A stretch of 64,000 nucleotides of DNA from Pseudobdellovibrionaceae bacterium (GTDB lineage Bacteria; Bdellovibrionota; Bdellovibrionia; Bdellovibrionales; Bdellovibrionaceae), in the NCBI GenBank assembly GCA_013359135.1, contig JABWCN010000002.1:50253-114252 (forward strand), given 5' to 3'. Shown piece after piece: positions 10,558 to 64,000 of this stretch. A model generated the notes under the pieces. That model ran no database searches. It had not been told where the DNA came from and was given only the letters and a program-made list of their open reading frames with translations. Numbering within the stretch: the stretch's first letter is position 1; each line of letters opens with the position of its first letter. The translations under genes were made by a program, and so were the position numbers.

Positions 10558-11076
10558 ATGCTTCAGGAAGTCACTATTTTCACAACAGGTGGAACGATCG
10601 AGAAAACTTATAATGAATTTGATGGTTCATTAGAAAATAGAGGAACTAGTATCAAAAATCGTATTCTTACGAAATTAAGACTGCCAACGACACCAATTCA
10701 TGTTTTTCCCTTGATGAGTAAGGACTCTCTCTACATGACAGAAGCAGATCGTGAGTTGATATTATCACATTTGAAAGAAGCTACATCGAAATCTAATCCT
10801 ATAGTTATTCTTCATGGAACTGACACCATGACAGTGACAGCAGAGTATTGCTGGAAAAGTATTAAATCCCCTAAGGTTGCAGTTGTTTTTACAGGGGCTA
10901 TGATTCCAATGGGATTTGATGATTCTGATGCGACTCAAAACGTCACTGAAGCCTTGCTGGCAGCAAAATTTTTAAAACCAGGTTTTTATATTTGCTTTCA
11001 TAACCAAATATTTAATGTTCCTAATGTGATAAAAAATAAAACCAAAGGAACTTTTGAAAAATTACAGGTTGACTGA
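10558..11076 (+). CDS. L-asparaginase N-terminal-domain family protein
   Basis: 172 aa with TTGGTIEK (TGGTI motif) and ILHGTDTM motifs of the asparaginase/glutaminase N-domain. Only the N-domain is present. Confidence 0.55.
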   Translation: MLQEVTIFTTGGTIEKTYNEFDGSLENRGTSIKNRILTKLRLPTTPIHVFPLMSKDSLYMTEADRELILSHLKEATSKSNPIVILHGTDTMTVTAEYCWKSIKSPKVAVVFTGAMIPMGFDDSDATQNVTEALLAAKFLKPGFYICFHNQIFNVPNVIKNKTKGTFEKLQVD

Positions 11077-11586
11077 AGGACGAGAGACTTTAACTGCTTG
11101 GCTAGTGCCATTGAGCTGCTCTTTGATACAAACTTGAGGGTTTTGCACCACACGCTGTTGCAGTTTAGTGAAAATTGGTTCTCTAATCGCTAAGGAGTTG
11201 TCTTGAAGAACGCACTGTCGAGCAATTTTTAAGGTCATATTAATAATTATAGGGGCCTTCATGTTAGCTGACATTTGTGTTGGGTCATCTGGAATTGTGA
11301 TAACACAGAAGGAGCGAGTTTTATCTGTATGTGACAGCTTTAAAGATTCAAGATCAGTTTTAGTTAAGCCAGGTTGATAATTAGTTACAAAAAGCTCAGG
11401 TTCAAGAAGAGGAAACGCAATCTGAGGTGACTCACAACTTTGTAACCATATAAATATCTCATCAGAAGGGTCATCAACTAAAACGAATTTTCTTAGATCT
11501 GAGAAGCCAAGCAGGCCTTCAGGAAAGTTTATAACGTCATCAGATTCAAATTTCACCTGTCCAAAACGAGAAGTCTGGATAAGCAT
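11062..11586 (-). CDS. fliW: flagellar assembly factor FliW (CsrA antagonist)
   Basis: 174 aa with strong FliW/DUF180 similarity (FPEGLLGF..., MSANMKAPIIIN versus Bacillus MTANLQAPIVIN). Confidence 0.85.
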   Translation of the reverse strand: MLIQTSRFGQVKFESDDVINFPEGLLGFSDLRKFVLVDDPSDEIFIWLQSCESPQIAFPLLEPELFVTNYQPGLTKTDLESLKLSHTDKTRSFCVITIPDDPTQMSANMKAPIIINMTLKIARQCVLQDNSLAIREPIFTKLQQRVVQNPQVCIKEQLNGTSQAVKVSRPSVNL

Positions 11587-11734
11587 AGTCCCTCCTGTTT
11601 AACTAATGACTCACTGAACCTTCAAAATGGTTAGTTAGAATTAGTCTTTACCCCTAGGAAAAATTTGAACTTAAATGATCAAAAACTCAAGATTTTTGGA
11701 CTTTAGCGCAATGTTTAATATGCAGTTTTAGCAA

Positions 11735-11998
11735 CTATTTAGAATCTTTATTGCCGGAATTGTTGTTCACTAAGGGTTTTAGTAAACTAGCAACGGATTT
11801 TGATTTGTCTGCTGAAACTTGGGAAGATTCTTTATTTTGATCTTGGATGGCAAGATACACCTCTTCTCTATGTATCTTAGTGTCTTTAGGAGCTTCAATG
11901 CCTAAACGAACCTGTTTACCTTTGATTTGCACCACTCTGATTTTTATATGATCATCAATGGCTATGCTTTCACCCAACTTCCTTGTGAGAACGAGCAT
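11735..11998 (-). CDS. csrA: carbon storage regulator CsrA
   Basis: 87 aa: MLVLTRKLGESIAIDDHIKIRVVQIKGKQVRLGIEAPKDTKIHREEVY is canonical CsrA. A C-terminal extension is typical of FliW-partnered CsrA. Confidence 0.9.
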   Translation of the reverse strand: MLVLTRKLGESIAIDDHIKIRVVQIKGKQVRLGIEAPKDTKIHREEVYLAIQDQNKESSQVSADKSKSVASLLKPLVNNNSGNKDSK

Positions 11999-12414
11999 GA
12001 TAGTCTCCTTAACTTTATGTTTGTAACCCTATCGGAACAAAAATTCGGAACTGTAGGTATAATTTATATGGCCGAAAGTCAAGGCTTGCCAGCTAGATAC
12101 TTACAATTGTTAAAGAAATTTCATTTTGCTTAAAAAATGTGATTTTTTGTATGCAGCAGGAGAGTATGGCTAGTGCTTCAGACATAAAATCCTTTTGATT
12201 AAACTCAGTTCGTCAATTCGCATCGTAGTTCAATAAAAATCAAAATTAATGACAAATTTTGGCTCTTATTTCAAAAAAAAAATCCCTATAAGATTTTATC
12301 ATCTAAAGAGAGTAAAGAAGTTTGACACTCAATTTTGAAAATTGTTCAAAACTCTACAGTCGATTTATAAAAACAGAAGAGTTATTATGGTCATCTATAT
12401 TTTGGAGAATTGTA

Positions 12415-13620
12415 ATGAAATTTTTGATATTACTTTTTTTATTTATCGGAGCCTTTGTAAGTTCATCTATGGCTAATCCAGTAGCTTGTGTAAATACCTA
12501 TAAAAGTTTTAAAGCTTCCAGCTCTTTTGAGAGTCGACTAGAGTTTTTTTTAGATAAAAAAACTGGGTATTTGCCGTTGTTAATTTCGGATTTTTTGCAA
12601 CAGGATTTTAAAGACTTTCTTGATTATTATAAATATCAAGTACTCCTAGCTGAGAGAAAAGGTGATAAGTCTCCACTTAAGTCTAATTTAGAGCTTTTGG
12701 AAACTGTGATAGCAACATTAGATACAAAAATACAAAAAATTGAATCTTTACATGAACCAAAATTGATTCAAAAGATATTTTCTAGTACCAAAAGTAGAAA
12801 ATTAAAGTTGGATAAAGCTGTTAATGAAGCTAATCAGTGTAAGGCAACTTTTAATAAATGTAGTTTAAGCTTAGATGTTGCTATTCAGGAAGCTGGTAAT
12901 AATATTATTTTATTAGAGACATTAAAATCAAATTTGGAAAATTATAGTAGAGAAATATCTGATTTTAATAGCACTCTTGTAGAGCAAGGTGGTAGTGGTA
13001 AATTAGCTAAATATTCCAGTGAATCTTCGCCATTTTTAATTCAGCATTATGAGCGAGTAGTGGGGATTTTAGAAGTTGTTAAATCGTTGCTTCAAATGGA
13101 AGTAAATAATGTCATTTCAGCAAAATTAAAGTTGAATATGGAAGTCCCTACTTTAGAGCAAAAATTTAAAAATTTAATTCATAAAGGAATCGAAGATTTA
13201 TTAATTGAGGGCGATAAAGAAAGAAGTAAAGATTTGTCCCCTAAAAGCAATGGAACTATACCTGAGAAGCTTAATAGAAAAATTAATATTGGAGAGAGAG
13301 TGTATGTTCTAACAGATAATAATAGTGATGTTTATATGGCTACTGTTGTGGCTAAAAATGAATCTGGTGAATACATGGTTGAATCTAAAAAGCATGGAAT
13401 CGTTAAAAAAAATCGTAACAAAATAGCCATTGATGATTATGGTTTGTCTTATGAAGGTATAAAAATTGGCATGAGGGTTGTTGCAATAAGAGATGATCGT
13501 TCTAGTCAATATTTTTCTAGTGTTCTAGGTATTCTACCTAGTGGAGTTTTTATTATTGAAGGACCTGGCAGAGGTACACTTACAGATAAGATTCGTAGTC
13601 TAATTTATGTTGCTGAATGA
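12415..13620 (+). CDS. secreted coiled-coil hypothetical protein with two C-terminal small beta-barrel-like repeats
   Basis: The track start is 12322; the likely start is ATG 12415, giving the signal peptide MKFLILLFLFIGAFVSSSMA. It has long heptad-like regions. The C-terminus has two related ~35-aa segments (ERVYVLTDNNSDVYMATVVAKNESGEYMVE / GMRVVAIRDDRSSQYFSSVLGILPSGVFIIE). Confidence 0.45.
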   Translation: MKFLILLFLFIGAFVSSSMANPVACVNTYKSFKASSSFESRLEFFLDKKTGYLPLLISDFLQQDFKDFLDYYKYQVLLAERKGDKSPLKSNLELLETVIATLDTKIQKIESLHEPKLIQKIFSSTKSRKLKLDKAVNEANQCKATFNKCSLSLDVAIQEAGNNIILLETLKSNLENYSREISDFNSTLVEQGGSGKLAKYSSESSPFLIQHYERVVGILEVVKSLLQMEVNNVISAKLKLNMEVPTLEQKFKNLIHKGIEDLLIEGDKERSKDLSPKSNGTIPEKLNRKINIGERVYVLTDNNSDVYMATVVAKNESGEYMVESKKHGIVKKNRNKIAIDDYGLSYEGIKIGMRVVAIRDDRSSQYFSSVLGILPSGVFIIEGPGRGTLTDKIRSLIYVAE

Positions 13621-13678
13621 GCTCTGTGATTTTATTGGATTGGTAGGGGGGGGAGAAATTATACAAGAGATGACTTTT

Positions 13679-14767
13679 CTATTTTAAAAAATCTAGCAAG
13701 CTTGGTTGAATCATTTTTCCAGATGTTTCAAGGGTTGCTTTCAGTGCGGAATCAGTTTTATTTATATCAGATACAACTTGGAAAACATCAGCATCTTCCA
13801 AAAGAGAGTTGGAAATTTTAGTGTCAACAATAGCTTTCTGAAGCGAATCCATGGTGCCATTCACTGTCATTATCCTCGCTCCCACCTCGGATCTACCAAG
13901 TACAATTTGAGATAAAGCTTGGTCTAACAAGTCCAAAGATTCTTGAATTCCTTCTTTGTCGTTGGATTTAAGAGAAACTTCAAGTCCTTTGAGAACCTGG
14001 AAAACATTAGTCCCAGGATCATCATTTGAAGGATCTTTACTACTTATCGTCGATTTATCGCTGAAGCTAGCTGGCCCTCTAAGTAAAACTTTATTTTCTT
14101 TGTCTTGGTTAAAAATTTCTTCTGATTCTTGTTCGTTAGCTTTAATGATTTGTAGGTCTTCAATTTTTGTTGGAGTGACTTGACCAGGCCGAACCAACCC
14201 ATCCCTTGAAATACCTTCTCCAAGAAAAATAGAGCTTCCAGGTAGATTCATAGCGACAAACTGATCTTTTTGAGTTTGCACTTTGAGATCTCCACTATCT
14301 CCGAAATACTCTCCATCTTTATTGAAGGGCATTGTTTGAGTTTTAAATCCTGAGAAAATATATCTTTCCCCTAATTTACGATTTCCTATCTGAACAGCTT
14401 GATTAAAAATTTGTTGTACTTCTTGTGCAGTAACATTTCTTGTTTGAGCGTTAGATGAAGCATCACTTGATTGACTAACGGCAAGTTCCTTAGCTCTGAC
14501 GAGTAATTCAGAAAGTTCATTCAAAGATTGGTCGGAGAATTCTAGAAAAGACTTTGCTTGATTAATATTTTTAACAAATTGATTACCGGTTCGTTCTTCC
14601 GTTTTTCCAGCTAACACTCTAGTTGTTGCTAATGGGTCATCAGAAGGTTTATTGATTTTCTTTTGAGTTGCAGCCTGGTTTTGCAAATCATTCATATCAG
14701 TACGGTTTTTACTGATATTTTTTTGCACTTGATTGTAGTTCATTTTATCTGCAATTCTCATTTTCAA
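13679..14767 (-). CDS. flgL: flagellar hook-associated protein 3 (FlgL)
   Basis: 362 aa with a flagellin-like N-terminus (MKMRIADKMNYNQV...DDP) and conserved C-terminal helix. It is immediately downstream of flgK. Confidence 0.8.
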   Translation of the reverse strand: MKMRIADKMNYNQVQKNISKNRTDMNDLQNQAATQKKINKPSDDPLATTRVLAGKTEERTGNQFVKNINQAKSFLEFSDQSLNELSELLVRAKELAVSQSSDASSNAQTRNVTAQEVQQIFNQAVQIGNRKLGERYIFSGFKTQTMPFNKDGEYFGDSGDLKVQTQKDQFVAMNLPGSSIFLGEGISRDGLVRPGQVTPTKIEDLQIIKANEQESEEIFNQDKENKVLLRGPASFSDKSTISSKDPSNDDPGTNVFQVLKGLEVSLKSNDKEGIQESLDLLDQALSQIVLGRSEVGARIMTVNGTMDSLQKAIVDTKISNSLLEDADVFQVVSDINKTDSALKATLETSGKMIQPSLLDFLK

Positions 14768-14789
14768 ATCCTAATAATTTTAAAATCAA

Positions 14790-16202
14790 TTATAATCGTT
14801 TTAAATTCAATATCGTATCAAACATTTCGTCAGCTGTACGGATAAGTCTTGCAGAGGCATCATAAGCCTTTTGCATTTCTACCATTTTTGCAGCCTCTTC
14901 ATCTAAACTAACTCCACTGATGCTTTCTCTGATCTGGGTTAGCTGGTCTAAAATATTTTTTTGGTTCTCATGAGTCTTCATTGAGCGTTGAGCAATAGTT
15001 CCTATTTGCCCTACTTGAGCTGTGTAGTAGTCATCAAGGGTTGAATTCCCATTATCCATTACTCTTTGGAATTGCAGTCCAGAAATAATGTTTGCGATGG
15101 TGTTATCGCCAGGGCTGTTAGTTCGCGCAGCTACAGCAATTTTTCCAGCATCTAATTTGATGCTCTCATTTAAACTTAGTGTCTCTGCAGCACCTTTAAC
15201 TTCAGAGGGCATTTCAAAAAATAAAATTCCATCTTTTCCATAATTGTCAAAACCTTCAATATGAGCCTTGTTAACTTCTTTTGCTAGCTCATAGGCCATA
15301 TTATCAATACTTGAAAGGTGCTGCTCTATAAGCTGATCTCTGATTTCTAAAGCCCCTCCTATGCGCCCACCTTTGATTTGACCAGTGATATTAAACAAAC
15401 TACCATTTTCAGTGGATCTATAAAAAATTTCTAAACGATCTCTTTCATCCGTGTAAGATGTTTCTAAGTCTCTTGACGACAAGCCCGAAACAAGAATAGC
15501 TGTGTTTCCGGCGGTCACACTTACCATGCCTTCTTTACTTTCTGCCCAAGTGATGTCTACTTTTTCACCAAGTTTTTTGAGTAACAAATCTCTGCGATCA
15601 CGTTCATCATTTGCAGGAACATTTTGTATTTCAACTTGTTGAATTTTTTCATTTAAAGAAGCTATTTCTTTAGTGATCTGATTGATCTCTTCTACTGTAG
15701 TTTTAATTTGTCCATCTAAATCGTTTTGAACCTCTTTGAGTTGGCCATTGACTCGTTTGAAATCTTGAGTCAAAGCATTGGCCGCTTCTTTAACCATAGT
15801 TCTTGAAGCTAAACTTTCAGGAGTTATTGCTAGCTCTCTGAAAGAATTAAAAAAATCAGTCATAAACTGATTTAGACCTTTATTTGCCTGTTCATTGTAG
15901 ATTTGTTCGACTCTTGCCAGAGAGTTGGCTTTAGATTCTGTAAAACCAAGATTCATATTCTCTTTTTGGATTTGCTTCTCAAGCCATGGGTTATTTATTC
16001 TGGAAACTTGAGTGGCTCTTGCACCTGTTCCAATACGTATTCGCCCTACACCAGTAGGGTCGTTGGCCACTTGATCGACTCTTTGTCTTGAGTAACCTTC
16101 GGTATTTTTATTGGCAATATTATGAGAGACAGTCTGCAAAGCTGTTTGTGAGTTTGATAGTGATCTTTTACCAACGTCCATCATGGACGAAATTTTAGAC
16201 AT
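14790..16202 (-). CDS. flgK: flagellar hook-associated protein 1 (FlgK)
   Basis: 470 aa with N-terminus MSKISSMMDVGKRSLSNSQTALQTVSHNIANKNTEGYSRQRVD, the FlgK signature. Confidence 0.85.
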   Translation of the reverse strand: MSKISSMMDVGKRSLSNSQTALQTVSHNIANKNTEGYSRQRVDQVANDPTGVGRIRIGTGARATQVSRINNPWLEKQIQKENMNLGFTESKANSLARVEQIYNEQANKGLNQFMTDFFNSFRELAITPESLASRTMVKEAANALTQDFKRVNGQLKEVQNDLDGQIKTTVEEINQITKEIASLNEKIQQVEIQNVPANDERDRRDLLLKKLGEKVDITWAESKEGMVSVTAGNTAILVSGLSSRDLETSYTDERDRLEIFYRSTENGSLFNITGQIKGGRIGGALEIRDQLIEQHLSSIDNMAYELAKEVNKAHIEGFDNYGKDGILFFEMPSEVKGAAETLSLNESIKLDAGKIAVAARTNSPGDNTIANIISGLQFQRVMDNGNSTLDDYYTAQVGQIGTIAQRSMKTHENQKNILDQLTQIRESISGVSLDEEAAKMVEMQKAYDASARLIRTADEMFDTILNLKRL

Positions 16203-17124: not shown

Positions 17125-17158
17125 ACCTCCTTGTATTTAGCTTTCTGATTCCTTGTAC
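17125..17158 (-). promoter_or_regulatory. two CsrA-consensus binding sites in the flgM 5' leader, one overlapping the SD
   Basis: The minus-strand RNA reads GUACAAGGAAUC-N12-AUACAAGGAGGU-N6-AUG. The second site matches the SELEX consensus RUACARGGAUGU at 11 of 12 positions. The first matches at 9 of 12. The two GGA motifs are 24 nt apart. Confidence 0.45.
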
Positions 17159-55920: not shown

Positions 55921-55936
55921 TGGCCTTTAATTTGCT
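55921..55936 (+). promoter_or_regulatory. sigma-54 promoter (TGGCC-N6-TTGCT) for the flgF operon
   Basis: GG at 55922-55923 and GC at 55934-55935, with exact -24/-12 spacing. It is 48 bp upstream of the flgF ATG. Confidence 0.5.
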
Positions 55937-55983: not shown

Positions 55984-56802
55984 ATGAGTATAAAAGGTGT
56001 TTATACAGCCCTTAGTGGAGCTATGGCTCAAAATCTTCAGATGGATACAATTGCCAATAACATCGCAAATGTGAATACTCCAGGCTTCAAAAAAGACTCA
56101 CAAGTTTTTAATGAGTATTTAACTGCAAATGAAAAACCACCATCAGTTATACAGGTTCCAAGAATTCCAGCAAGTATTGAAAGTTTCTATGACCTTCAAG
56201 GTGGTGATAAGAGTTTTGTTGATGCTAAGGGAACGTTTACTGATTTCTCTCAAGGTTCTTTAAAGCACACAGGTAATCAGTTAGATGTTGCAATTGATGG
56301 AAAAGGTTTTTTTGAAATTGCTACCCCTACAGGAGTCAAGTTAACAAGAACAGGAAATTTTACTTTAGATGGCAATGGTAGGTTAGTAACAAAAGAAGGT
56401 TTTTTTGTTCTTAAAGCTGGTGGAGAAGGTGAGGATCCAGAGGCTCGAAGTATCACTCTCAATGGAGCTCTTCCATTAAGTATAAATGATGCGGGTGATG
56501 TGCTTCAAGGTACTGATGTTATTGCTAAGCTATCACTTGTTGATGTTGAAAATAAGGATAGCTTACAAAAAGTTGGAAACTCTATGTACACGTTTAAGTC
56601 CAATCAACCTGCTGAGGTAGTGGCTTTAAAAAATCCATCAGTAAAAAGCGGCTTTTTAGAATCAAGCAATGTGAATATTGTCCAAGAAATGACAGACATG
56701 ATCAAGACTCAAAGAATTTTTGAGAGTACGCAAAAAGCAATTAGTGCATACGATTCAATCAGCGATAAGTTAGTCAATCAAGTAGGAAAAACAAATGGTT
56801 AA
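55984..56802 (+). CDS. flgF: flagellar basal-body rod protein FlgF
   Basis: N-terminus MSIKGVYTALSGAMAQNLQMDTIANNIANVNTPGFKK, and a C-terminal conserved rod helix. Confidence 0.8.
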   Translation: MSIKGVYTALSGAMAQNLQMDTIANNIANVNTPGFKKDSQVFNEYLTANEKPPSVIQVPRIPASIESFYDLQGGDKSFVDAKGTFTDFSQGSLKHTGNQLDVAIDGKGFFEIATPTGVKLTRTGNFTLDGNGRLVTKEGFFVLKAGGEGEDPEARSITLNGALPLSINDAGDVLQGTDVIAKLSLVDVENKDSLQKVGNSMYTFKSNQPAEVVALKNPSVKSGFLESSNVNIVQEMTDMIKTQRIFESTQKAISAYDSISDKLVNQVGKTNG

Positions 56803-56813
56803 TGAGGTAATAA

Positions 56814-57599
56814 ATGATTAAAAGTTTAAATACTGCAGCAACTGGAATGGCAGCTCAGCAATCAAATATGGATGTTATTGCAAATAATATTGCTAACGTT
56901 TCAACAAATGGTTTTAAAAAGTCTAGGGCAGAGTTTGAAGATTTAGTTTATCAAACTGCTAAAGAACCAGGAGTAGCTACAGGTGAGAATTCTTTTTCTC
57001 CTAATGGTGTTCAAACGGGGTTAGGAGTCAGAACAGCATCTATTCAAAAAAACTTTGAAACTGGTCAAGCTGTGATAACGAAAAATGCTCTTGATATTCA
57101 AATTGAGGGAAGTGGATTCTTTCAAGTGTTAACACCAGATGGACAGATTGCCTATACTAGAGATGGAGCTTTTAAAAAAGATCCTAGTGGAAAGCTGATA
57201 GATAAGAATGGTAATGTACTTCAACCAGAGATTACCATTCCTGCTGGAGTGAAAGGGCTTGATATTTCGGCTAGTGGTGAAGTGAAAGCGATTCAAGGAT
57301 TGAGTGATACTCCTCAGATTATAGGGCAGATTGACATTGTTAACTTTGTTAATCCATCCGGCTTAAAAGCATTGGGAAAAAATTTATTCTCTCAAACTCC
57401 AGCTAGTGGCCAAGCTTCCACGACAAGACCTGGTCTTAATGGTTCAGGTTACTTAGCTCAAGGTCAGTTGGAATCTAGTAACGTGAATATTGTAGACGAA
57501 ATGGTTAATATGATCACCGCTCAAAGAGCTTACGAGACAAATTCAAAAGTCATTCAAGCGAGTGATCAAATGTTACAATCAGTGAATAATCTAAGATAG
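56814..57599 (+). CDS. flgG: flagellar distal rod protein FlgG
   Basis: MIKSLNTAATGMAAQQSNMDVIANNIANVSTNGFKKSRAEFEDLVYQ matches the FlgG N-terminus almost residue for residue. Confidence 0.9.
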   Translation: MIKSLNTAATGMAAQQSNMDVIANNIANVSTNGFKKSRAEFEDLVYQTAKEPGVATGENSFSPNGVQTGLGVRTASIQKNFETGQAVITKNALDIQIEGSGFFQVLTPDGQIAYTRDGAFKKDPSGKLIDKNGNVLQPEITIPAGVKGLDISASGEVKAIQGLSDTPQIIGQIDIVNFVNPSGLKALGKNLFSQTPASGQASTTRPGLNGSGYLAQGQLESSNVNIVDEMVNMITAQRAYETNSKVIQASDQMLQSVNNLR

Positions 57600-57608
57600 A
57601 GGTTTTAA

Positions 57609-58487
57609 TTGAAGACAAAAATAGCGGTATTTTTTTCATTTTTTTTCACACAATTGGTTTTTGCAAAAATGGAAATTGCTTTGGTAGATGAAGTAGAAGT
57701 AACCAAAAAAGAATCCTACAGTTTGTTCGACATAGTATATTTGAAAAAAGGGACAGCTCTTGAGCTAGAGTCGTTAAAAAAAATTAAAATTTTAGATTTA
57801 ACAAAGTCAGAAATTATCAATGTTGTTCGTGATAACAAAGATAAAATACAATTAAAAGTGAATGATGATTTTAAAATTAAAACAACAAAAAATCTTTCTA
57901 GAGAAGAGGGAATAAGAAAAGTTAAGAACTATCTATTAACTCAATGTGATGAGTGTATTTTTGATATTCAAGTTACGCAATTAACTGAAAATTCTATGCT
58001 TGATTTTTCTCTCTCAGAAAGTGCCTTTCAGGGTTCTAGAGGCAGTTTTATGATTCCATTGAAGTCAACAACAAGTAAGCTAACGGGTTGGTTTGTGGGA
58101 ACTTGGAAAACTTTTAAGAAAGTTCCAGTATTAAACAAATGGGTCGCTCAGAAAAGTAGGGTTATGGCAGAAGATTTGAAAGAAGAACTTAAAGAAGTTA
58201 CTTTTTTTATGGATAAAATCCTGAGTAAAGAAGAGCTACTTGGTAAACAGGTTAATCGCGCACTTTCAGCAGGTTCAATTATAACCAGAGAAATGATTGT
58301 CCATGAAGCAGCAGTTAGGAAGGGAGATGCTGTTAAGCTGATTCTTAAAAATGGTGAGATTGAAATTGAAGTTCAAGGCTTTGCAGAATCTGATGGTCAG
58401 TATGGTGAAAAAATAAAAATTAAAACGGGATTAAACAAAATTATTACAGGAATTGTTTCAGAAAAAGGACAGGTAGTTTCAGAATGA
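57609..58487 (+). CDS. flgA: flagellar P-ring assembly chaperone FlgA
   Basis: Signal peptide and a C-terminal SAF-like domain (VRKGDAVKLILKNGEIEIEVQGFAESDGQYGEKIKIK). It precedes flgH and overlaps it by 4 bp. Confidence 0.7.
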   Translation: MKTKIAVFFSFFFTQLVFAKMEIALVDEVEVTKKESYSLFDIVYLKKGTALELESLKKIKILDLTKSEIINVVRDNKDKIQLKVNDDFKIKTTKNLSREEGIRKVKNYLLTQCDECIFDIQVTQLTENSMLDFSLSESAFQGSRGSFMIPLKSTTSKLTGWFVGTWKTFKKVPVLNKWVAQKSRVMAEDLKEELKEVTFFMDKILSKEELLGKQVNRALSAGSIITREMIVHEAAVRKGDAVKLILKNGEIEIEVQGFAESDGQYGEKIKIKTGLNKIITGIVSEKGQVVSE

Positions 58488-59224
58488 AAAAGAATAATTG
58501 GAACTGGATCATTTTATCGTTAATTTCTCTTTCAATAACCTCACTCCTTTCTTGTGCTAATATGGGTGTGTCATCAGAGGTTTCTAGCGAAGATTTTGAT
58601 TCTGGATTAACTAAATATAATGAAAACCCCAATTATGGGGTATGGGGACAACGTCATTATAAAAAGACTACTAAATCTCAGTTAGAAGAAGAATCTGATT
58701 TAGATAGTAAAGCAGGATCATTATGGGTTATGGACGGACAGCAGTCTTATTATTTTACGCAGAATAAAAATCGTAAAGAAGGCGACTTCTTAAATGTCAG
58801 AATTGAAGGAGCTGCTTTGAAGCAAGTTGAAACGAAAGTAAGTATTATTAAAAATTTACTTCAAGAATTAGAACAACAAGAAAAGGATGAGCTTTTTCAA
58901 AAAACTACCCCTAGTGACAAACAAACTAGTGTTGATTTGAGAGCTCCAGCTTCTGAAGCTAAAAAAGCTCCTGAAAAGGAAGAGAAAAGTGAAATTTCTG
59001 ATCTTGGTCCAATTCAAGCTCGTATAGTCGAAAGATTAAATGATGGTAATTACCGTATTAAGGGACAACAACCATTTATGATTGGTAAAAGAGAGTACAA
59101 AGTTATCGTTGCAGGTGTTCTTAGGCCTGAAGATTTTAATGATGAAGGTATAAATTCGTCAAAAATTATTGATCCTCAATTTGATGTTGTTTCTATTAGG
59201 AAGAAGGAAGTGAGTAAACAATGA
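58484..59224 (+). CDS. flgH: flagellar L-ring lipoprotein FlgH
   Basis: Lipobox LLSCANMG, the GSLW motif, and a C-terminal conserved region. Confidence 0.85.
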   Translation: MKKNNWNWIILSLISLSITSLLSCANMGVSSEVSSEDFDSGLTKYNENPNYGVWGQRHYKKTTKSQLEEESDLDSKAGSLWVMDGQQSYYFTQNKNRKEGDFLNVRIEGAALKQVETKVSIIKNLLQELEQQEKDELFQKTTPSDKQTSVDLRAPASEAKKAPEKEEKSEISDLGPIQARIVERLNDGNYRIKGQQPFMIGKREYKVIVAGVLRPEDFNDEGINSSKIIDPQFDVVSIRKKEVSKQ

Positions 59225-60225
59225 TAGTTTTTGGTAAAATTTATTTATTATGTTTTATGATGTTTATGAGCTTATGTGCTCAAGCAGCTAGATTAAAAGA
59301 TATAGCAAGTATTAGAGGAGTCAGAGAAAATCAGCTCGTTGGCTATGGAATTGTTGTAGGTCTTAAAGGAACAGGTGATGGAAAAAATGAGTTTACTGCG
59401 AAAAGTATGGGAAGGCTTCTTGATAAACTTGGAGTTAAACTTGAAAGCCAGGAGGTTCAAAGTAAAAATGTTGCAGCCGTGATTGTAACAGCCACGTTAC
59501 CAGCCTTTGCTAAGGCAGGTAACCCTTTAGATATTACTGTCAGCTCAATCGGAGATGCGGGGAGTCTTCAGGGAGGAACTTTGCTACAAACTCCACTCAG
59601 AGCAGGCAATGAGCAGGTATTTGCTGTAGCCCAGGGAACCGTAGTGATAAGTTCTGATGGTAGTAAAGAAGCTCACACAACAGCAGGAAGAATTCCGAAT
59701 GGTGCCATCATAGAAAAAGATGTTCAAAGTGATTTTGCATCAAAAAAAATGTTTCGACTAACTTTGCACAATCCAGATTTTACAACAGCTGCTAGAGCAG
59801 TATTAACAATTAATCGTGAACTAGGTGGACAGTATGCAGCTGCCAAAGATGCTGGAACAATAGATATTGTGACACCTTTTTCATACGAAAATAAAGGTGT
59901 TGAGCTTTTAGCAACTATTGAATCAATTCAAATTAATCCCGATAGTCGCGCTGTAGTTATTATAAATGAAAAATCAGGAACTGTAGTTATAGGAGATAAA
60001 GTTAAGATTTCAAGGGTCGCTATTTCTCATAATGGAATTAGTGTTAAAATTGGTGATGGTAAAGGGAAAGCTAGTGATGAAAAAATTGCTCTTGTAGAGG
60101 GTGCTAGTGTTGGAGATTTAGTAAATAGTTTGAATAGGGTTGGAACAACTCCAAAGGATCTGATTAATTTACTGCAGGCAATTAAATCAGCAGGAGCTCT
60201 TCAAGGTGAACTAGAAATTCTCTAG
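59221..60225 (+). CDS. flgI: flagellar P-ring protein FlgI
   Basis: RLKDIASIRGVRENQLVGYGIVVGLKGTGD and other FlgI blocks. Confidence 0.9.
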   Translation: MIVFGKIYLLCFMMFMSLCAQAARLKDIASIRGVRENQLVGYGIVVGLKGTGDGKNEFTAKSMGRLLDKLGVKLESQEVQSKNVAAVIVTATLPAFAKAGNPLDITVSSIGDAGSLQGGTLLQTPLRAGNEQVFAVAQGTVVISSDGSKEAHTTAGRIPNGAIIEKDVQSDFASKKMFRLTLHNPDFTTAARAVLTINRELGGQYAAAKDAGTIDIVTPFSYENKGVELLATIESIQINPDSRAVVIINEKSGTVVIGDKVKISRVAISHNGISVKIGDGKGKASDEKIALVEGASVGDLVNSLNRVGTTPKDLINLLQAIKSAGALQGELEIL

Positions 60226-60371
60226 TTATAGGAAATAACTAGACTTTAGAAACCAAGACTAGAGCTAGGAAGAGGATTTTTAAGTTTTTAAAAAAAAATG
60301 TTTTGAAATGAGACGCTTAAAGATAAAATGATATTATAAACTTCAATTTACATGGATGTAAAATGAAGTCC

Positions 60372-60550
60372 CGGGGAGGGTGGGAAAGAGATCGAAAACC
60401 AGGATGGTCAAGAGTCGATGAAAGTTTCTCGCAGGAAACAGAGGAAGAATAAAGCAACATCAAGGATTGATGCTGAAGGAATTCAACCCCAGAGTCTATA
60501 GTGCAGGATGCACATAAGATTCTCCGACTCAAACTCCCCTCTTTTTTTCT
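60372..60550 (+). ncRNA. candidate structured sRNA rich in GGA hairpin-loop motifs (Csr/Rsm-like CsrA-binding RNA) or a long CsrA-targeted leader of the flgJ-like gene
   Basis: There are eight GGA trinucleotides in about 170 nt on the plus strand, versus three on the minus strand. Hairpins predicted by eye present GGA in loops: ACCA-GGA-UGGU (60398-60408), UUCUC-GCAGGAAACA-GAGGAA (~60426-60446), CAUCAA-GGA-UUGAUG (60458-60472), UGAA-GGAA-UUCA (60474-60485) and GUGCA-GGA-UGCAC (60501-60513). The 5' GGGGAGGGUGGGAAAGAGA pairs with the 3' UCUCCGACUCAAACUCCCC to form an interrupted closing stem. It is immediately followed by U7. A TAAAAT -10-like hexamer lies at 60359-60364, so the predicted TSS is near 60372. 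Confidence 0.4.
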
Positions 60551-60578
60551 TTAAAAAAGAATCAGACGAAGGCAAAAA

Positions 60579-61286
60579 ATGATTTCAAAAGTGTCCTCAA
60601 ACCCTTTGTTGATGTCAAAAGACATACAAACTAAAGATTCAGAATCTGCAACTCCTAAAGAGGGTATTACAAGACAGGATAAGGTTAAACAACAGTTTCG
60701 TGAAGTATCTGAACTCTATGAAAAGCAATTTCTTAGGGAGATGGTCAAGTCTATGCGATCTACTATTTCAGAGAGCGGATTAGTTAAAGTTAATCAAGCT
60801 GAAAAAATATTCCGCGAGCAGCTCGATGGAGAATATGTAGAAGGATGGCAAAAAAAAGGTGGGATTGGTCTATCTGACGTAATTTATAATAATATGATGG
60901 ACCGCTTTGGAGAAAAATTTGGAGTCAAACAGCGAATAGAAAAACCCCAGGGGCCTTTACAGTTGAAGGAGCAAGATAATTATTTTTTGAAAACTTCTAA
61001 TGACAATAAAGAAGGGCAGAATTACCAATTTAAAGACATTAAATCTGTTGATGGCAAACCCGTAGCTATAAAAATGCCTTGGCAAGGGTATTTGACCAAA
61101 AAAATCCAATTATCTCCAGATGAGTATTTTCTTGAGGCCAGTCATGGAAATCACTTAACTAGTCAGTTTCATTTTAAAGGAAATTTAAGTGATTTGTCTG
61201 CAGATAGTATTGAAGCAGGATCAAATCTGGGAACTTTAAGTCCTGACTCGAATACTTTGAACTGGAAAGTTTTAAAGTCAGAGTAA
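60579..61286 (+). CDS. flgJ: flagellar rod-binding protein (FlgJ N-terminal-domain-like); no glucosaminidase domain
   Basis: EKQFLREMVKSMRST and GGIGLSDVIYNNM match the Rod-binding domain. The C-terminal about 110 aa is unassigned. Confidence 0.6.
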   Translation: MISKVSSNPLLMSKDIQTKDSESATPKEGITRQDKVKQQFREVSELYEKQFLREMVKSMRSTISESGLVKVNQAEKIFREQLDGEYVEGWQKKGGIGLSDVIYNNMMDRFGEKFGVKQRIEKPQGPLQLKEQDNYFLKTSNDNKEGQNYQFKDIKSVDGKPVAIKMPWQGYLTKKIQLSPDEYFLEASHGNHLTSQFHFKGNLSDLSADSIEAGSNLGTLSPDSNTLNWKVLKSE

Positions 61287-61565
61287 GTTCAAGAGCTGTA
61301 CTTAATTTTTTACCTTAATCTTTAAATAGCCTAATTAATTTGATTTTAAATTTCTCATTTTGACTCATTCTTATTTTAAGATTTTTTGGTGAGTTTGAAA
61401 ATAATCACTTTTAAGCGTCAACAAAATTAGCAAGTGTAAAAGGCTATGATGTTTTAATTTATCAAAACAATATGTATTTTCTTACCTATTTAGAAAAATA
61501 CGAAAATGATAGATAATGGTTATGAGGGGTATTTGTTTTTTATAACGTCCTTAAGGGGGTAATAG

Positions 61566-62324
61566 GTGAAGTCAATTAAGTTAGTTGTTGTATTATCAAT
61601 AGTTGGTACGGTTGGTTTTTTATTTCAAAACTGTCAGGAAGTTTCTGGGGAGAATTTTTCAAAAAATAGTGTTGGTAACAATTCGACAAATACAACAGAT
61701 CAAGCAAGTACATCTAATTCACAGTCTCAAGGTTCTTCATCACAATTTCCTACTGGTCTTGTAACTAGTTCCGAGACTAATCTATTAAAAGTTTCATATT
61801 TAGCAAGTGCTACAGCGAGCACTGACTGTTCTAAAGGAGATGCTAAACTAACTTTAGAAGTAAGTAATGCAGGAAGTGATATCTTGGTATGTCCTGAATA
61901 CAGTTTAGATATGCCGACAGGACATCCTAGAAAAGGTGAAACGTTTAAGTGTGGAAATGATAATTTTGTGGTGCCTCCAACTTCTTGGAAATATGATGCT
62001 GGAGCCAGAAAATGGACTGCGAGTGAAGTTGTAAGTAATTCAGCCTATTTAGTTCCGGGGAGCTTTTATGTTGTTGTAAAAGACAATCAAGGAAATATCT
62101 ATAAGTCAGGTGCGGCAGTTTTAAAAAGGTCTGGGTATGCTAACTGTCAAGTCAACTCTTCTGCATATACAAATAAGAGATGTGCTTGGTCTGGAGGAAT
62201 TGTTATCGGTCCGACACCAAATTATGCAGTTGTAACTAATCAATCTTGCCAATATGGAACTGAAAGATATCAGCATATTGATAGCTCTGGTTCAGTTCAC
62301 AACTATCAGTGTATTTGTCAATAA
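61566..62324 (+). CDS. secreted Cys-rich hypothetical protein with an FQNC motif after the signal peptide
   Basis: GTG start with an AAGGGGG RBS. Signal peptide MKSIKLVVVLSIVGTVGFLFQNC. 12 Cys. Ser/Thr/Asn-rich linker. Confidence 0.45.
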   Translation: MKSIKLVVVLSIVGTVGFLFQNCQEVSGENFSKNSVGNNSTNTTDQASTSNSQSQGSSSQFPTGLVTSSETNLLKVSYLASATASTDCSKGDAKLTLEVSNAGSDILVCPEYSLDMPTGHPRKGETFKCGNDNFVVPPTSWKYDAGARKWTASEVVSNSAYLVPGSFYVVVKDNQGNIYKSGAAVLKRSGYANCQVNSSAYTNKRCAWSGGIVIGPTPNYAVVTNQSCQYGTERYQHIDSSGSVHNYQCICQ

Positions 62325-62478
62325 ACTGCTAAATTAAATCGTCAAAATTTTATCTGGACCCATGAAAAATGACATTAATTTCATGGGTTCTTTGTTTTTT
62401 TTAACCTCTTTTCAAATATAAATCATCTTCAGTAAAAGAGTTTGTCAATAACCTGACAAAGTTCGATGAAGGTCGGGC

Positions 62479-62494
62479 TGGCACTGTGATTGCT
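62479..62494 (+). promoter_or_regulatory. sigma-54 promoter, consensus match TGGCAC-N5-TTGCT, for fliL-fliM
   Basis: TGGCAC at 62479-62484 and TTGC at 62490-62493. This is a perfect match to the -24/-12 consensus. The predicted TSS is about 62505. Confidence 0.6.
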
Positions 62495-62540
62495 GCTTTG
62501 TTAAATGAGAGAAAATTTTAGCTTCATCAAGGAGGATGAA

Positions 62541-63089
62541 TTGGCTGAAGAAAAAGCGGCACCCCCACCAGCAGAGTCAGCAGCCCCACCAGCCGGTGGT
62601 GGAAAAAATAACATTATTTACTTAGTTCTTATTATCATCAATATGCTTTTTTTAGCCGGTGTTGGTTGGATGATTTATCAAGGTAAGAAAAAAGAAAATG
62701 CTGAACCAAAAATTGAGCACGTAATTAAAGGAGAGCATGAAGCTCAGGAAGCTGAACAAAAAGAAGAGAAACAGTTTGTTGGCAAAGTGGTACCATTAGA
62801 AACGTTTATTGTTAACTTAGCCGGTTCCAAGGGCAGAAAAGTAGCTAAAGTGATGATGGAACTTGAGCTCAAAGATAATAAAGATAAAAATGTAGCAGAC
62901 GAAATTGATAAAAGAAAAGCTCAAGTTAGAGATATTATAATCATCATTCTATCTGCAAAAAAGTATGAAGAAATTTCAACTAAAGAAGGAATTGAAAATC
63001 TTAAGAATGAGATCAAAGATACCATTAATTCTTTTTTAACTAATGGAAAAATAACAAACGTATTTTTCACAGAATTTATATACAATTAA
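62541..63089 (+). CDS. fliL: flagellar basal-body-associated protein FliL
   Basis: Single transmembrane segment plus a periplasmic domain with VVPLETFIVNLAGSKGRKVAKVMMELELKD. The track ATG at 62505 coincides with the sigma-54 TSS. In-frame TTG at 62541, preceded by AGGAGG with 5-nt spacing, is the more plausible start. Confidence 0.7.
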   Translation: MAEEKAAPPPAESAAPPAGGGKNNIIYLVLIIINMLFLAGVGWMIYQGKKKENAEPKIEHVIKGEHEAQEAEQKEEKQFVGKVVPLETFIVNLAGSKGRKVAKVMMELELKDNKDKNVADEIDKRKAQVRDIIIIILSAKKYEEISTKEGIENLKNEIKDTINSFLTNGKITNVFFTEFIYN

Positions 63090-63116
63090 CGATTTGCTCT
63101 TGAAAAGGAATTTAAG

Positions 63117-64000
63117 ATGAATCAAGTTTTATCTCAAAGTGAAGTAGATGCTCTCCTTGCTGCCGTTTCCGACGGTGATGTCGCTTCATCAGATGCTAAA
63201 AAAGAAGCAAATAATGGTAGTGCTAAAGTTGTTGATGACAAAAAAGTAGTTACTTATGATTTAACTAGTCAAGATCGTATTATTAGAGGTCGTTTACCCC
63301 AGCTGGAAGTCATATACGAAAAATACATGAGAGCTTTTAGGGTTTCACTTTCAGGTGCTTTAAGAAAAATTGCATCTATATCTTTAACTAGTACAGAGTT
63401 TTTAAAATTTGGAGAATTCATCAATACGTTACCGATGCCGACTTGTATGAGTGTCTTACGTTTTAATAATTTAAGAGGTTCAGCACTGATGGTTATAGAG
63501 AGTAAACTTGCTTATGCTCTTGTCGATTCTTTTTTTGGTGGTGCTGATCGACCTTATACAAAAATTGATGGTAAAGACTTTACTCCTATTGAGCTCAGTA
63601 TTGTTAGAAAAGTAGTTGAACTCGCTATTCATGATCTTGAGAATGCCTGGTCGAGTGTAGAAAAAATTGGATGCAGTTTTGTTCGGACTGAAGTTAATCC
63701 TCAGTTTGTTGGTATTGTCCCGCCAACAGATGTGGTAATAGCCTCCACGTTTGATGTGGAATTAGAAAACGCCACGGGTACTATTTCCATGGTGATTCCC
63801 TACGCGACGATTGAACCAATTAAACAAAAGCTCTCAACAGGATTTCAAGTAGAGTCAGATCAAACAGATAAAAAATTATGGACAGCAATTATTAAAGAAC
63901 AATTAATGGATACCGACTTAGAGGTTAAAATTAATCTTGGTGAAACTCAAATTTTACTTGAAGATTTGATGGGTTTAAAAATTGGTGACGTCATTCCGCT
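63117..64000 (+). CDS. fliM: flagellar motor switch protein FliM, partial; continues beyond the window end
   Basis: MNQVLSQSEVDALLAAVSDGDV... then LPQLEVIYEKYMRAFRVSLSGALRKI, the FliM N-terminus. There is no stop before 64000. Confidence 0.8.
   Translation, partial: MNQVLSQSEVDALLAAVSDGDVASSDAKKEANNGSAKVVDDKKVVTYDLTSQDRIIRGRLPQLEVIYEKYMRAFRVSLSGALRKIASISLTSTEFLKFGEFINTLPMPTCMSVLRFNNLRGSALMVIESKLAYALVDSFFGGADRPYTKIDGKDFTPIELSIVRKVVELAIHDLENAWSSVEKIGCSFVRTEVNPQFVGIVPPTDVVIASTFDVELENATGTISMVIPYATIEPIKQKLSTGFQVESDQTDKKLWTAIIKEQLMDTDLEVKINLGETQILLEDLMGLKIGDVIP

Follow-up and report, generated by a model that had tools for sequence, protein, structure and literature searches.

A predicted RpoN promoter, a putative TTG start codon and a conserved leader hairpin upstream of the operonic fliL gene in the Bdellovibrio family

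Introduction

At which nucleotides do transcription and translation of the flagellar gene fliL begin, and what is the role of a small hairpin placed directly before its putative start codon? These questions are raised by a 64,000-nucleotide (nt) stretch of DNA from a member of the Bdellovibrionaceae (contig JABWCN010000002.1, positions 50,253 to 114,252 of the forward strand), which is called the window below and has a low G+C content of about 34%. A first-pass annotation of the window had described a sigma-54 promoter, a hairpin displaying the ribosome-binding site in its loop and an in-frame TTG start in place of the annotated ATG, and had pointed to CsrA as a possible ligand of the hairpin. 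The finding is real, and it was for the most part correctly interpreted. The explanation that we favour combines an RpoN promoter, translation from the TTG, control by the hairpin and, by preference, binding of CsrA. As a whole it appears fairly probable, and its parts differ in strength; the sequence features, their conservation and the covariation of the stem are direct observations.

For comparison, 80 orthologous fliL loci were taken from species-representative genomes and 4 from the nearest metagenomic relatives. The fliL start could be placed in 76 loci (Bdellovibrionaceae/Pseudobdellovibrionaceae). The protein was compared with 120 FliL homologues from public annotations (P0001-P0120).

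Predicted sigma-54 promoter of the fliL operon

The features on which the transcriptional part of the analysis depends are as follows.

62479-62494, + strand: predicted sigma-54 (RpoN) promoter, with -24 TGGCAC at 62479-62484, spacer tgtga and -12 TTGCT at 62490-62494
62505 (about +/-2 nt), + strand: predicted transcription start site (TSS), 12 nt past the C of the -12 GC, in the standard sigma-54 geometry
62541-62543, + strand: TTG, putative start codon
62541-63089, + strand: fliL coding sequence from the TTG, 182 amino acids (aa), Pfam FliL PF03748
62356-62402, + strand: predicted intrinsic terminator of the upstream hypothetical gene, with a 12-bp stem at 62356-62390 and a U-run, UUUGUUUUUUUU

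The element TGGCACtgtgaTTGCT at 62479-62494 has GG at -24, GC at -12 and the exact spacing of TGGCAC-N5-TTGCW. An exact match to TGGCACNNNNNTTGC occurs once in the 64-kb window, against 0.04 expected, and 4 of 100 shuffles contained one. When one mismatch was allowed, 3 matches were found against 2.2 expected, so that only the exact promoter site stands out. From the single sequence, the promoter match alone was notable, and comparative evidence was needed for the rest.

Across the orthologous loci, the fliL start is marked by a conserved NTG-GCN-GAA-GAA-AAA, whose first codon is mostly GTG (60 loci), less often ATG (14) and once TTG. TGGCA[CT]-N5-TTGCT was found within 200 nt upstream of this conserved start in 75 of the 76 loci, and the C of its -12 element precedes the start codon by 48 nt in the window (median across loci 50 nt). 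In the alignment, T1, G2, G3, C4 and A5 and also T12, T13, G14, C15 and T16 do not vary at all, in contrast to the 5-nt spacer and the leader that follows. Invariant -24/-12 blocks around a free spacer are the signature of selection on a sigma-54 promoter. The element described by the first-pass annotation is thus exact, unique in the window and conserved, and we regard it as very probable that an RpoN promoter drives the fliL operon. RpoN-dependent promoters of fliL operons are a known class, to which it would add a new member with very good computational support.

A local transcription start is also supported by the presence of the terminator, which folds at -16 kcal/mol (z -3.54, none of 200 shuffles as good), and by the lack of a sigma-70-like site on the + strand between the terminator and fliL. 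The terminator would stop read-through from upstream and insulate the fliL transcription unit. A further argument for the promoter comes from a second sigma-54-like element, TGGCCTTTAATTTGCT, at 55921-55936 on the + strand, which has one mismatch and lies 63 nt before the ATG of flgF (55984). This site points to RpoN dependence of the rod and ring operon flgF-flgI as well. An RpoN-like sigma factor, bd0843, is encoded by B. bacteriovorus (PMC3464611), a species whose loci have the fliL promoter in common with the window.

Two results weigh against this reading. Neither rpoN (RpoN-box motif) nor an enhancer-binding protein gene (GAFTGA-type) was found in the window. Moreover, the operonic fliL is absent from the TSS tables of Karunker 2013 for B. 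bacteriovorus, which list attack-phase promoters only and hold the stand-alone fliL gene bd1076. The latter gene of strain HD100 has a FliA promoter and a mapped TSS (PMC11323537, PMC3627812).

According to the proposed mechanism, the fliL-fliM-fliN-fliO-fliP-fliQ operon would be transcribed by RpoN holoenzyme from about 62505, a position deduced from the promoter geometry, and an enhancer-binding ATPase would be required to activate it. We thus infer dependence on both RpoN and an activator. No prior description of sigma-54/FleQ control in Bdellovibrio was found in the literature searched, and the promoter is the first sequence-level evidence that we found for RpoN dependence of the operonic fliL-fliQ genes in this family. 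An RpoN tier would complement the FliA control of attack-phase genes and would form a Pseudomonas/Vibrio-like level in the flagellar hierarchy of a predator.

Conserved hairpin in the fliL leader

Between the predicted TSS and the TTG lie the following elements.

62505-62540, + strand: predicted 5' leader of 36 nt, which begins with ATGAGA, part of a T[GA][AG]GA motif
62523-62540, + strand: leader hairpin with a 6-bp stem and a hexaloop; TTCATC at 62523-62528, loop AAGGAG at 62529-62534, GATGAA at 62535-62540
62529-62535, + strand: Shine-Dalgarno sequence AAGGAGG; distance to the TTG 5 nt, or 6 nt when counted from AAGGAG

The loop of the hairpin is the Shine-Dalgarno sequence, and its 3' arm is the spacer between this sequence and the TTG. 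The leader was analyzed across the relatives after anchoring on GGAG, the criterion being an NNGGAG loop closed by 4 or more consecutive pairs. Such a stem was found in 53 of 70 fliL orthologues (76%). Among 164 ribosome-binding sites of other genes in the same loci there were eight, two of which proved to belong to fliL (about 4-5%). In the window, fliL alone has a stem of at least 4 bp among the 21 GGAG-type ribosome-binding sites of open reading frames of at least 100 aa. The stems of the relatives differ widely in sequence, as the following examples indicate.

L053: AUUUUC/GAAAAU
L048: AUUUC/GAAAU
L061: UUUCC/GGAAA
L049, L056 and L059: GAUC/GAUC
L023 clade: AUCC/GGAU
L077: ACAUC/GAUGU
Nearest relatives and L002 clade: stem with U.G wobbles

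The 6-bp structure was named beforehand from one of the sequences and then tested on 52 distinct sequences. In these, 78.5% of the cells were paired, compared with 66% after shuffling, and the covariation score was 0.350 as opposed to 0.186 for shuffled sequences. None of 500 shuffles reached the observed score, slid registers gave 0.205 at most, and double changes were present in five of the six hairpin pairs. When the arms of 26 divergent sequences were permuted, 76 +/- 5 pairs were formed, compared with 97 for the sequences' own arms (p about 5e-5). The relatives retain A(A/U)GGAG as the loop and differ freely in their stems. About 10% of the paired cells (about 25) are G.U wobbles, and such changes indicate an RNA on the + strand and not a DNA palindrome. 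In relatives with an ATG start, the stem reaches over the start codon and attains up to 8 bp, a structure that should restrain initiation.

Several observations argue the other way. On its own, the hairpin adopts the drawn fold with -5.2 kcal/mol and a z-score of -1.73 (11 of 200 shuffles as good), and longer leader segments gave z-scores of -0.3 to -1.3; the folding energy alone is not beyond chance. The covariation and permutation tests ignore phylogeny, and the case for the hairpin is made by counts and permutation, not by de novo prediction. RNAalifold detected only trivial GGCA/UGCU pairing inside the promoter in a MAFFT alignment from promoter to start (A5) and no structure in the anchored 22-mers (A2). 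In the most distant loci the promoter is kept without the hairpin. No match to the window was found in Rfam at the gathering score, and at E up to 10 the region 60200-62600 gave chance-level matches only.

Taking both sides together, the hairpin is likely to be a selected RNA structure. The perfect 6-bp stem displaying AAGGAG reported by the first-pass annotation lies exactly where it was placed, and the comparison adds that it is conserved, specific to fliL and covarying. Selection for pairing implies a translational control element, and the hairpin is probably a conserved leader element controlling translation. The leader would fold into a small hairpin that carries the ribosome-binding site in its hexaloop and uses the spacer as its 3' arm. 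No earlier description of a Bdellovibrio fliL leader hairpin was found in the literature searched; we consider this conserved leader element mildly new, as a further example of a familiar kind.

Other hairpins were noted in the same region. Most fliL leaders (L009-L080) start with the semi-conserved T[GA][AG]GA, followed by a 5'-proximal hairpin of variable sequence, exemplified by GACCAC...GUGGUC in the B. bacteriovorus group. The version in the window (62505-62522) is weak. A hairpin at the fliM ribosome-binding site (63098-63117, + strand; UCUUGAA-AAGGAA-UUUAAGA, with a 7-bp stem to the ATG) was rejected as a candidate. It is absent from all relatives, in which fliM follows fliL after 10-15 nt, and it is probably lineage-specific or due to chance. 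The stop codon of flgI is spanned by a 9-bp hairpin with an AGGAA loop (60221-60243, + strand, tctagttatAGGAAataactaga), whose sequence is not conserved in the relatives. A window-wide scan for hairpins with GGA in the loop gave 129 hits versus about 97 in shuffles; it was too permissive and uninformative.

CsrA as a candidate ligand of the hairpin

The window encodes both CsrA and its protein antagonist.

11735-11998, - strand: csrA, 87 aa, with the IHREE motif and a C-terminal extension (Pfam CsrA 3.5e-24); candidate leader-binding protein
11062-11586, - strand: fliW, coding for the protein antagonist of CsrA (Pfam FliW 1.1e-36), directly downstream of csrA

The geometry of the hairpin had been described as preferred by CsrA, and in this respect the sequence agrees. 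The GGA lies in the loop of a short hairpin and overlaps the ribosome-binding site, and TCAAGGAGGA (62527-62536) matches WCANGGANGW, i.e., (A/U)CANGGANG(U/A). CsrA is favoured for three reasons: this match is found together with an A(A/U)GGAG hexaloop that carries the ribosome-binding site, the window encodes CsrA with IHREE together with FliW, and a B. subtilis hag reporter with a GGA-hairpin leader is repressed by the CsrA of B. bacteriovorus (PMC13443453). The native targets of B. bacteriovorus CsrA are said to be almost unknown (PMC13443453). The preferred mechanism is that a CsrA dimer would clamp the GGA loop and block 30S binding, with CsrA itself under the control of FliW and perhaps of a multi-GGA RNA encoded at 60335-60552, about 2 kb upstream of fliL.

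The points that count against CsrA are of several kinds. WCANGGANGW has 9 matches in the window versus 6 expected and is not enriched, and the CsrA consensus is in part similar to every ribosome-binding site of the form AAGGAGG. No second spaced GGA site was found in the leader of the window beyond the adjacent GGAGGA; extra GGAs are present in 31 of 68 leaders of relatives, against 21.5 expected. The established target of CsrA in FliW-type systems is the flagellin mRNA and not fliL. No report of CsrA-fliL regulation was found in the literature searched. CsrA as the ligand is thus plausible and speculative, and we put it forward tentatively.

The principal alternative keeps the promoter and the TTG and makes the hairpin independent of CsrA. 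In this case, it would tune or damp the weak initiation at GTG or TTG codons, or it would act together with the 5'-proximal hairpin of most relatives to stabilise the short leader. It accounts for the position of the 3' arm, which fills the spacer between the Shine-Dalgarno sequence and the start codon and pairs the start codon itself in the ATG-start relatives, and for the second, 5'-proximal hairpin of most leaders. The lack of a spaced second GGA site and of an enriched consensus in the window also speaks in its favour. On the other hand, tuning alone does not need the ribosome-binding site to be placed exactly in the loop. Nor does it explain why the loop is held as the hexaloop preferred by CsrA/RsmE while the stems are free to change, or the occurrence of csrA and fliW within flagellar gene clusters. 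We regard this alternative as a serious possibility that nevertheless falls short of being probable. A small, family-wide covarying leader element provides a concrete and inexpensive target for asking what Bdellovibrio CsrA regulates, a matter on which, according to a 2026 paper, almost nothing is known.

Some further observations concern csrA and its consensus. In the region 11062-16202 (- strand), the order is flgK, flgL, a 1.7-kb stretch with an opposite-strand open reading frame (12322-13620, no Pfam match), csrA and fliW. Here, csrA precedes fliW, and in B. subtilis the order is reversed (fliW-csrA). The ribosome-binding site of flgM, ACAAGGAGGT (17125-17134, - strand), matches WCANGGANGW and has no convincing flanking stem.

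Multi-GGA element between flgI and the flgJ-like gene

The putative partner of CsrA mentioned above lies in a gap of 353 nt.

60335-60552, + strand: structured element of about 215 nt in the gap between flgI and the flgJ-like gene

This element is about 80-90% conserved in six relatives (L001, L002, L007 and L081-L083). Its 5' hairpin, ACAUGGAUGU, shows compensatory changes at three pairs, and a long closing helix, GGGGAGGG...CUCCCCUC, is followed by a U-run. Its internal hairpins are CCA(U)GGAUGG, GUUUCUCGCAGGAAAC, CAUCAAGGAUUGAUG and GUGCAGGAUGCAC, and five GGA hairpins lie inside the closing helix (ACAUGGAUGU, CCAGGAUGG, CGCAGGAAAC, CAUCAAGGAUUGAUG and GUGCAGGAUGCAC). Sigma-70-like hexamers are present at 60303-60337. 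No match for the element was found in Rfam. As a caveat, the hairpin at 60450-60480 folds better on the minus strand (z -4.3 versus -1.7).

The first-pass annotation had connected this region with the fliL leader through a recurrence of CATCAAGGA at 60458. The sequence does recur there, but at chance level (2 occurrences against 0.69 expected, with 13 of 100 shuffles reaching 2). The shared 9-mer CAUCAAGGA is statistically uninformative, yet the element in which it lies is a real conserved multi-GGA structure.

In an organism bearing FliW, the element looks like a CsrA sponge of the CsrB/RsmZ type. The presence of a sponge-like element in the same gene cluster lends credibility to the idea that CsrA acts on the fliL leader and does not prove it. 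The combined proposal, in which the fliL hairpin is a CsrA operator and CsrA is titrated in this clade by a previously undescribed multi-GGA sponge RNA from 60335-60552, appears rather doubtful. If it were true, the FliW-CsrA switch of Bdellovibrionota would act on the translation of an early flagellar operon, with genes for the stator scaffold, the switch and the export gate, and not only on flagellin. One organism would then possess two antagonists of CsrA, a protein and an RNA.

Translation start of fliL

One further codon has to be considered.

62505-62507, + strand: annotated ATG, in frame with the TTG 12 codons downstream, without an intervening stop

The annotated ATG had been called implausible since the TSS falls on it. 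This argument is not sufficient, as a 5'-terminal AUG can itself be translated from a leaderless mRNA. The conclusion stands for a different reason, namely that the ATG is not conserved. In the two nearest relatives (L081 and L083), the TTG is kept and the ATG is absent, with L081 reading ATA. In 36 of 75 leaders, an in-frame stop lies between the predicted TSS and the conserved start codon. No ribosome-binding site precedes the ATG, which, as part of ATGAGA, falls in the semi-conserved T[GA][AG]GA motif at the predicted start of transcription. It would be a piece of this initiator-region motif and not a start codon.

The public annotations point in the same direction. Most of the 120 homologues are annotated from MAEEK..., the position of the TTG. 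The longer calls have only FIKEDE[V/L] in common, which is the translated hairpin, and diverge completely beyond it. P0001 is called at 194 aa, whereas P0003 (NCBI), which is 99% identical, is called at 182 aa. Use of the TTG at 62541 is what we infer from these data, and we are confident that it is the start of fliL, as had been proposed. The leader of about 36 nt would be followed by translation from the TTG by means of AAGGAGG, yielding a 182-aa FliL.

Use of the ATG at 62505, alone or beside the TTG, would give a leaderless mRNA and a 194-aa protein beginning with MRENF. The predicted +1 is the A of this ATG, the frame is open to the TTG, and P0001 uses it. The codon is nevertheless missing in the two nearest relatives. 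Elsewhere, it is out of frame or followed by a stop, and the 12 extra residues are conserved only where the hairpin is translated. With the initiator-region motif and the annotation of P0003 from the TTG also opposing it, initiation at the ATG is very unlikely.

The correction of the start codon is in itself routine and, like the promoter, ordinary. It repairs a recurrent error by which near-identical FliL proteins are annotated with 194 or 182 aa; the N-terminal extensions of many Bdellovibrio FliL homologues would be merely translated leader. About one third of P0001-P0120 carry such spurious extensions, which are translated leader or even promoter. One of them contains ...VGIRVAFNL..., the in-frame translation of TGGCAT-N5-TTGC.

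Candidate activator site upstream of the promoter

Upstream of the promoter lies a palindrome that was overlooked in the first-pass annotation.

62444-62457, no strand assigned: GTCAATAACCTGAC palindrome, GTCA-N6-TGAC (extended form TTTGTCA-N6-TGACAAA at 62441-62460); candidate activator site

Of 75 loci, 37 have GTCA-N6-TGAC upstream of the promoter; the background frequency of this palindrome is 0.13 per kb. Across the loci, it mostly lies 108-145 nt before TGGCA, and in the window 35 nt before it. In the two nearest relatives (L081 and L083), the half-sites are placed as in the window and flank a different spacer (GTCAAATGAATGAC). The proposed FleQ boxes are GTCaNTAAAtTGAC in P. aeruginosa and GTCAaAAAAtTGAC in P. 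putida, and the Pseudomonas fliLMNOPQ operon is FleQ- and RpoN-dependent, with FleQ acting near the promoter (PMC6120874). The palindrome resembles the FleQ box, which is a resemblance and not an identification. An activator would probably bind at 62444-62457, as at the Pseudomonas FleQ/RpoN fliL promoters. Two facts weaken this assignment: the B. bacteriovorus group has only a one-mismatch palindrome, GCCAAAACTTTGAC, and the distance from the palindrome to the TSS varies from about 55 nt here to about 130-150 nt in most relatives.

The sequence CGTCAAAAttttaTCTGGAC (62341-62359, + strand) is kept in L081 and L083. It lies about 138 nt before TGGCA, where other genera have the GTCA-N6-TGAC box, and overlaps the terminator at its base. 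A second activator site in degenerate form, or an ancestral one, may be present here.

In a further alternative, TTCATC-N6-GATGAA, the hairpin sequence itself, would be a DNA palindrome for a dimeric regulator downstream of the promoter, as reported for FlrC and, at some promoters, for FleQ, and not an RNA structure. The repeat is situated at about +19 to +36, and at the promoters of fliL, fliE and flhA, FleQ is reported to act from nearby and without looping (PMC6120874). Half-sites bound by a protein should be preserved, whereas the stems switch to unrelated sequences with their complementarity retained. The roughly 25 G.U cells would count as mismatches if the repeat worked as DNA or on the opposite strand, and it is a different palindrome, GTCA-N6-TGAC, that is the conserved candidate upstream. 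A DNA role of the repeat is highly improbable.

That the promoter match and the hairpin arose by chance in an AT-rich intergenic region, with the operon read from another promoter, would agree with the modest single-sequence statistics (motif p about 0.04, hairpin z -1.7), but is already contradicted by the conservation data (-24/-12 blocks kept in 75 of 76 loci, hairpin in 76% of fliL orthologues against about 4-5% of controls) and by the terminator immediately upstream, and is hardly credible.

Gene context of fliL

The remaining genes of the flagellar region of the window were placed with Pfam.

55984-60225: flgF, flgG, flgA, flgH and flgI
60579-61286: rod-binding FlgJ-like gene, separated from flgI by the 353-nt gap
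61566-62324: hypothetical gene, directly preceding the fliL unit
63117-64000, + strand: fliM (Pfam FliM and FliMN_C), the next gene of the operon, truncated by the end of the window

The 182-aa FliL scores 82.5 bits with PF03748, for which the curated cut-off is 24.6. In relatives, fliN-fliO-fliP-fliQ follow fliM (gene order in L081-L084). The genes flgM, flgN, flgK and flgL, followed by csrA and fliW, lie elsewhere in the window. No flagellin gene, which was wanted for a comparison of leaders, was found in the window.

Comparison with known systems

The stand-alone fliL gene bd1076 of B. bacteriovorus HD100 codes for a FliL paralogue from the same bacterial family. It is monocistronic and has a FliA (sigma-28) promoter with a mapped TSS, whereas the gene studied here is the operonic paralogue beside fliM, with a predicted sigma-54 promoter.

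The closest counterparts of this promoter are the FleQ/RpoN class II promoters of fliLMNOPQ in Pseudomonas, and the FlrA/RpoN hierarchy of Vibrio. As in the window, a sigma-54 -24/-12 element lies directly before fliL. The Pseudomonas operon has the same content (fliL-fliM-fliN-fliO-fliP-fliQ) as that of the relatives of the window, and the palindrome upstream has the same architecture as the Pseudomonas FleQ boxes. The present system differs in that it belongs to another phylum (Bdellovibrionota), that a gene for the candidate activator is not in the window and that it is known from sequence alone. The box also differs in position, lying at about -55 here and at about -130 to -150 in most relatives.

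The hairpin is comparable to the CsrA/RsmA-RsmE operators of hcnA in Pseudomonas, hag (BS2) in B. subtilis and flaA in Campylobacter. The putative target here is the leader of the fliL operon and not a flagellin mRNA, and the known operators have two spaced sites, whereas the leader in the window has one GGA-bearing site (GGAGGA). Common to all of them are the GGA in an ANGGAN hexaloop, the short stem and the overlap with the ribosome-binding site, and the csrA-fliW pair of the window lies next to flgK and flgL, as it does in B. subtilis.

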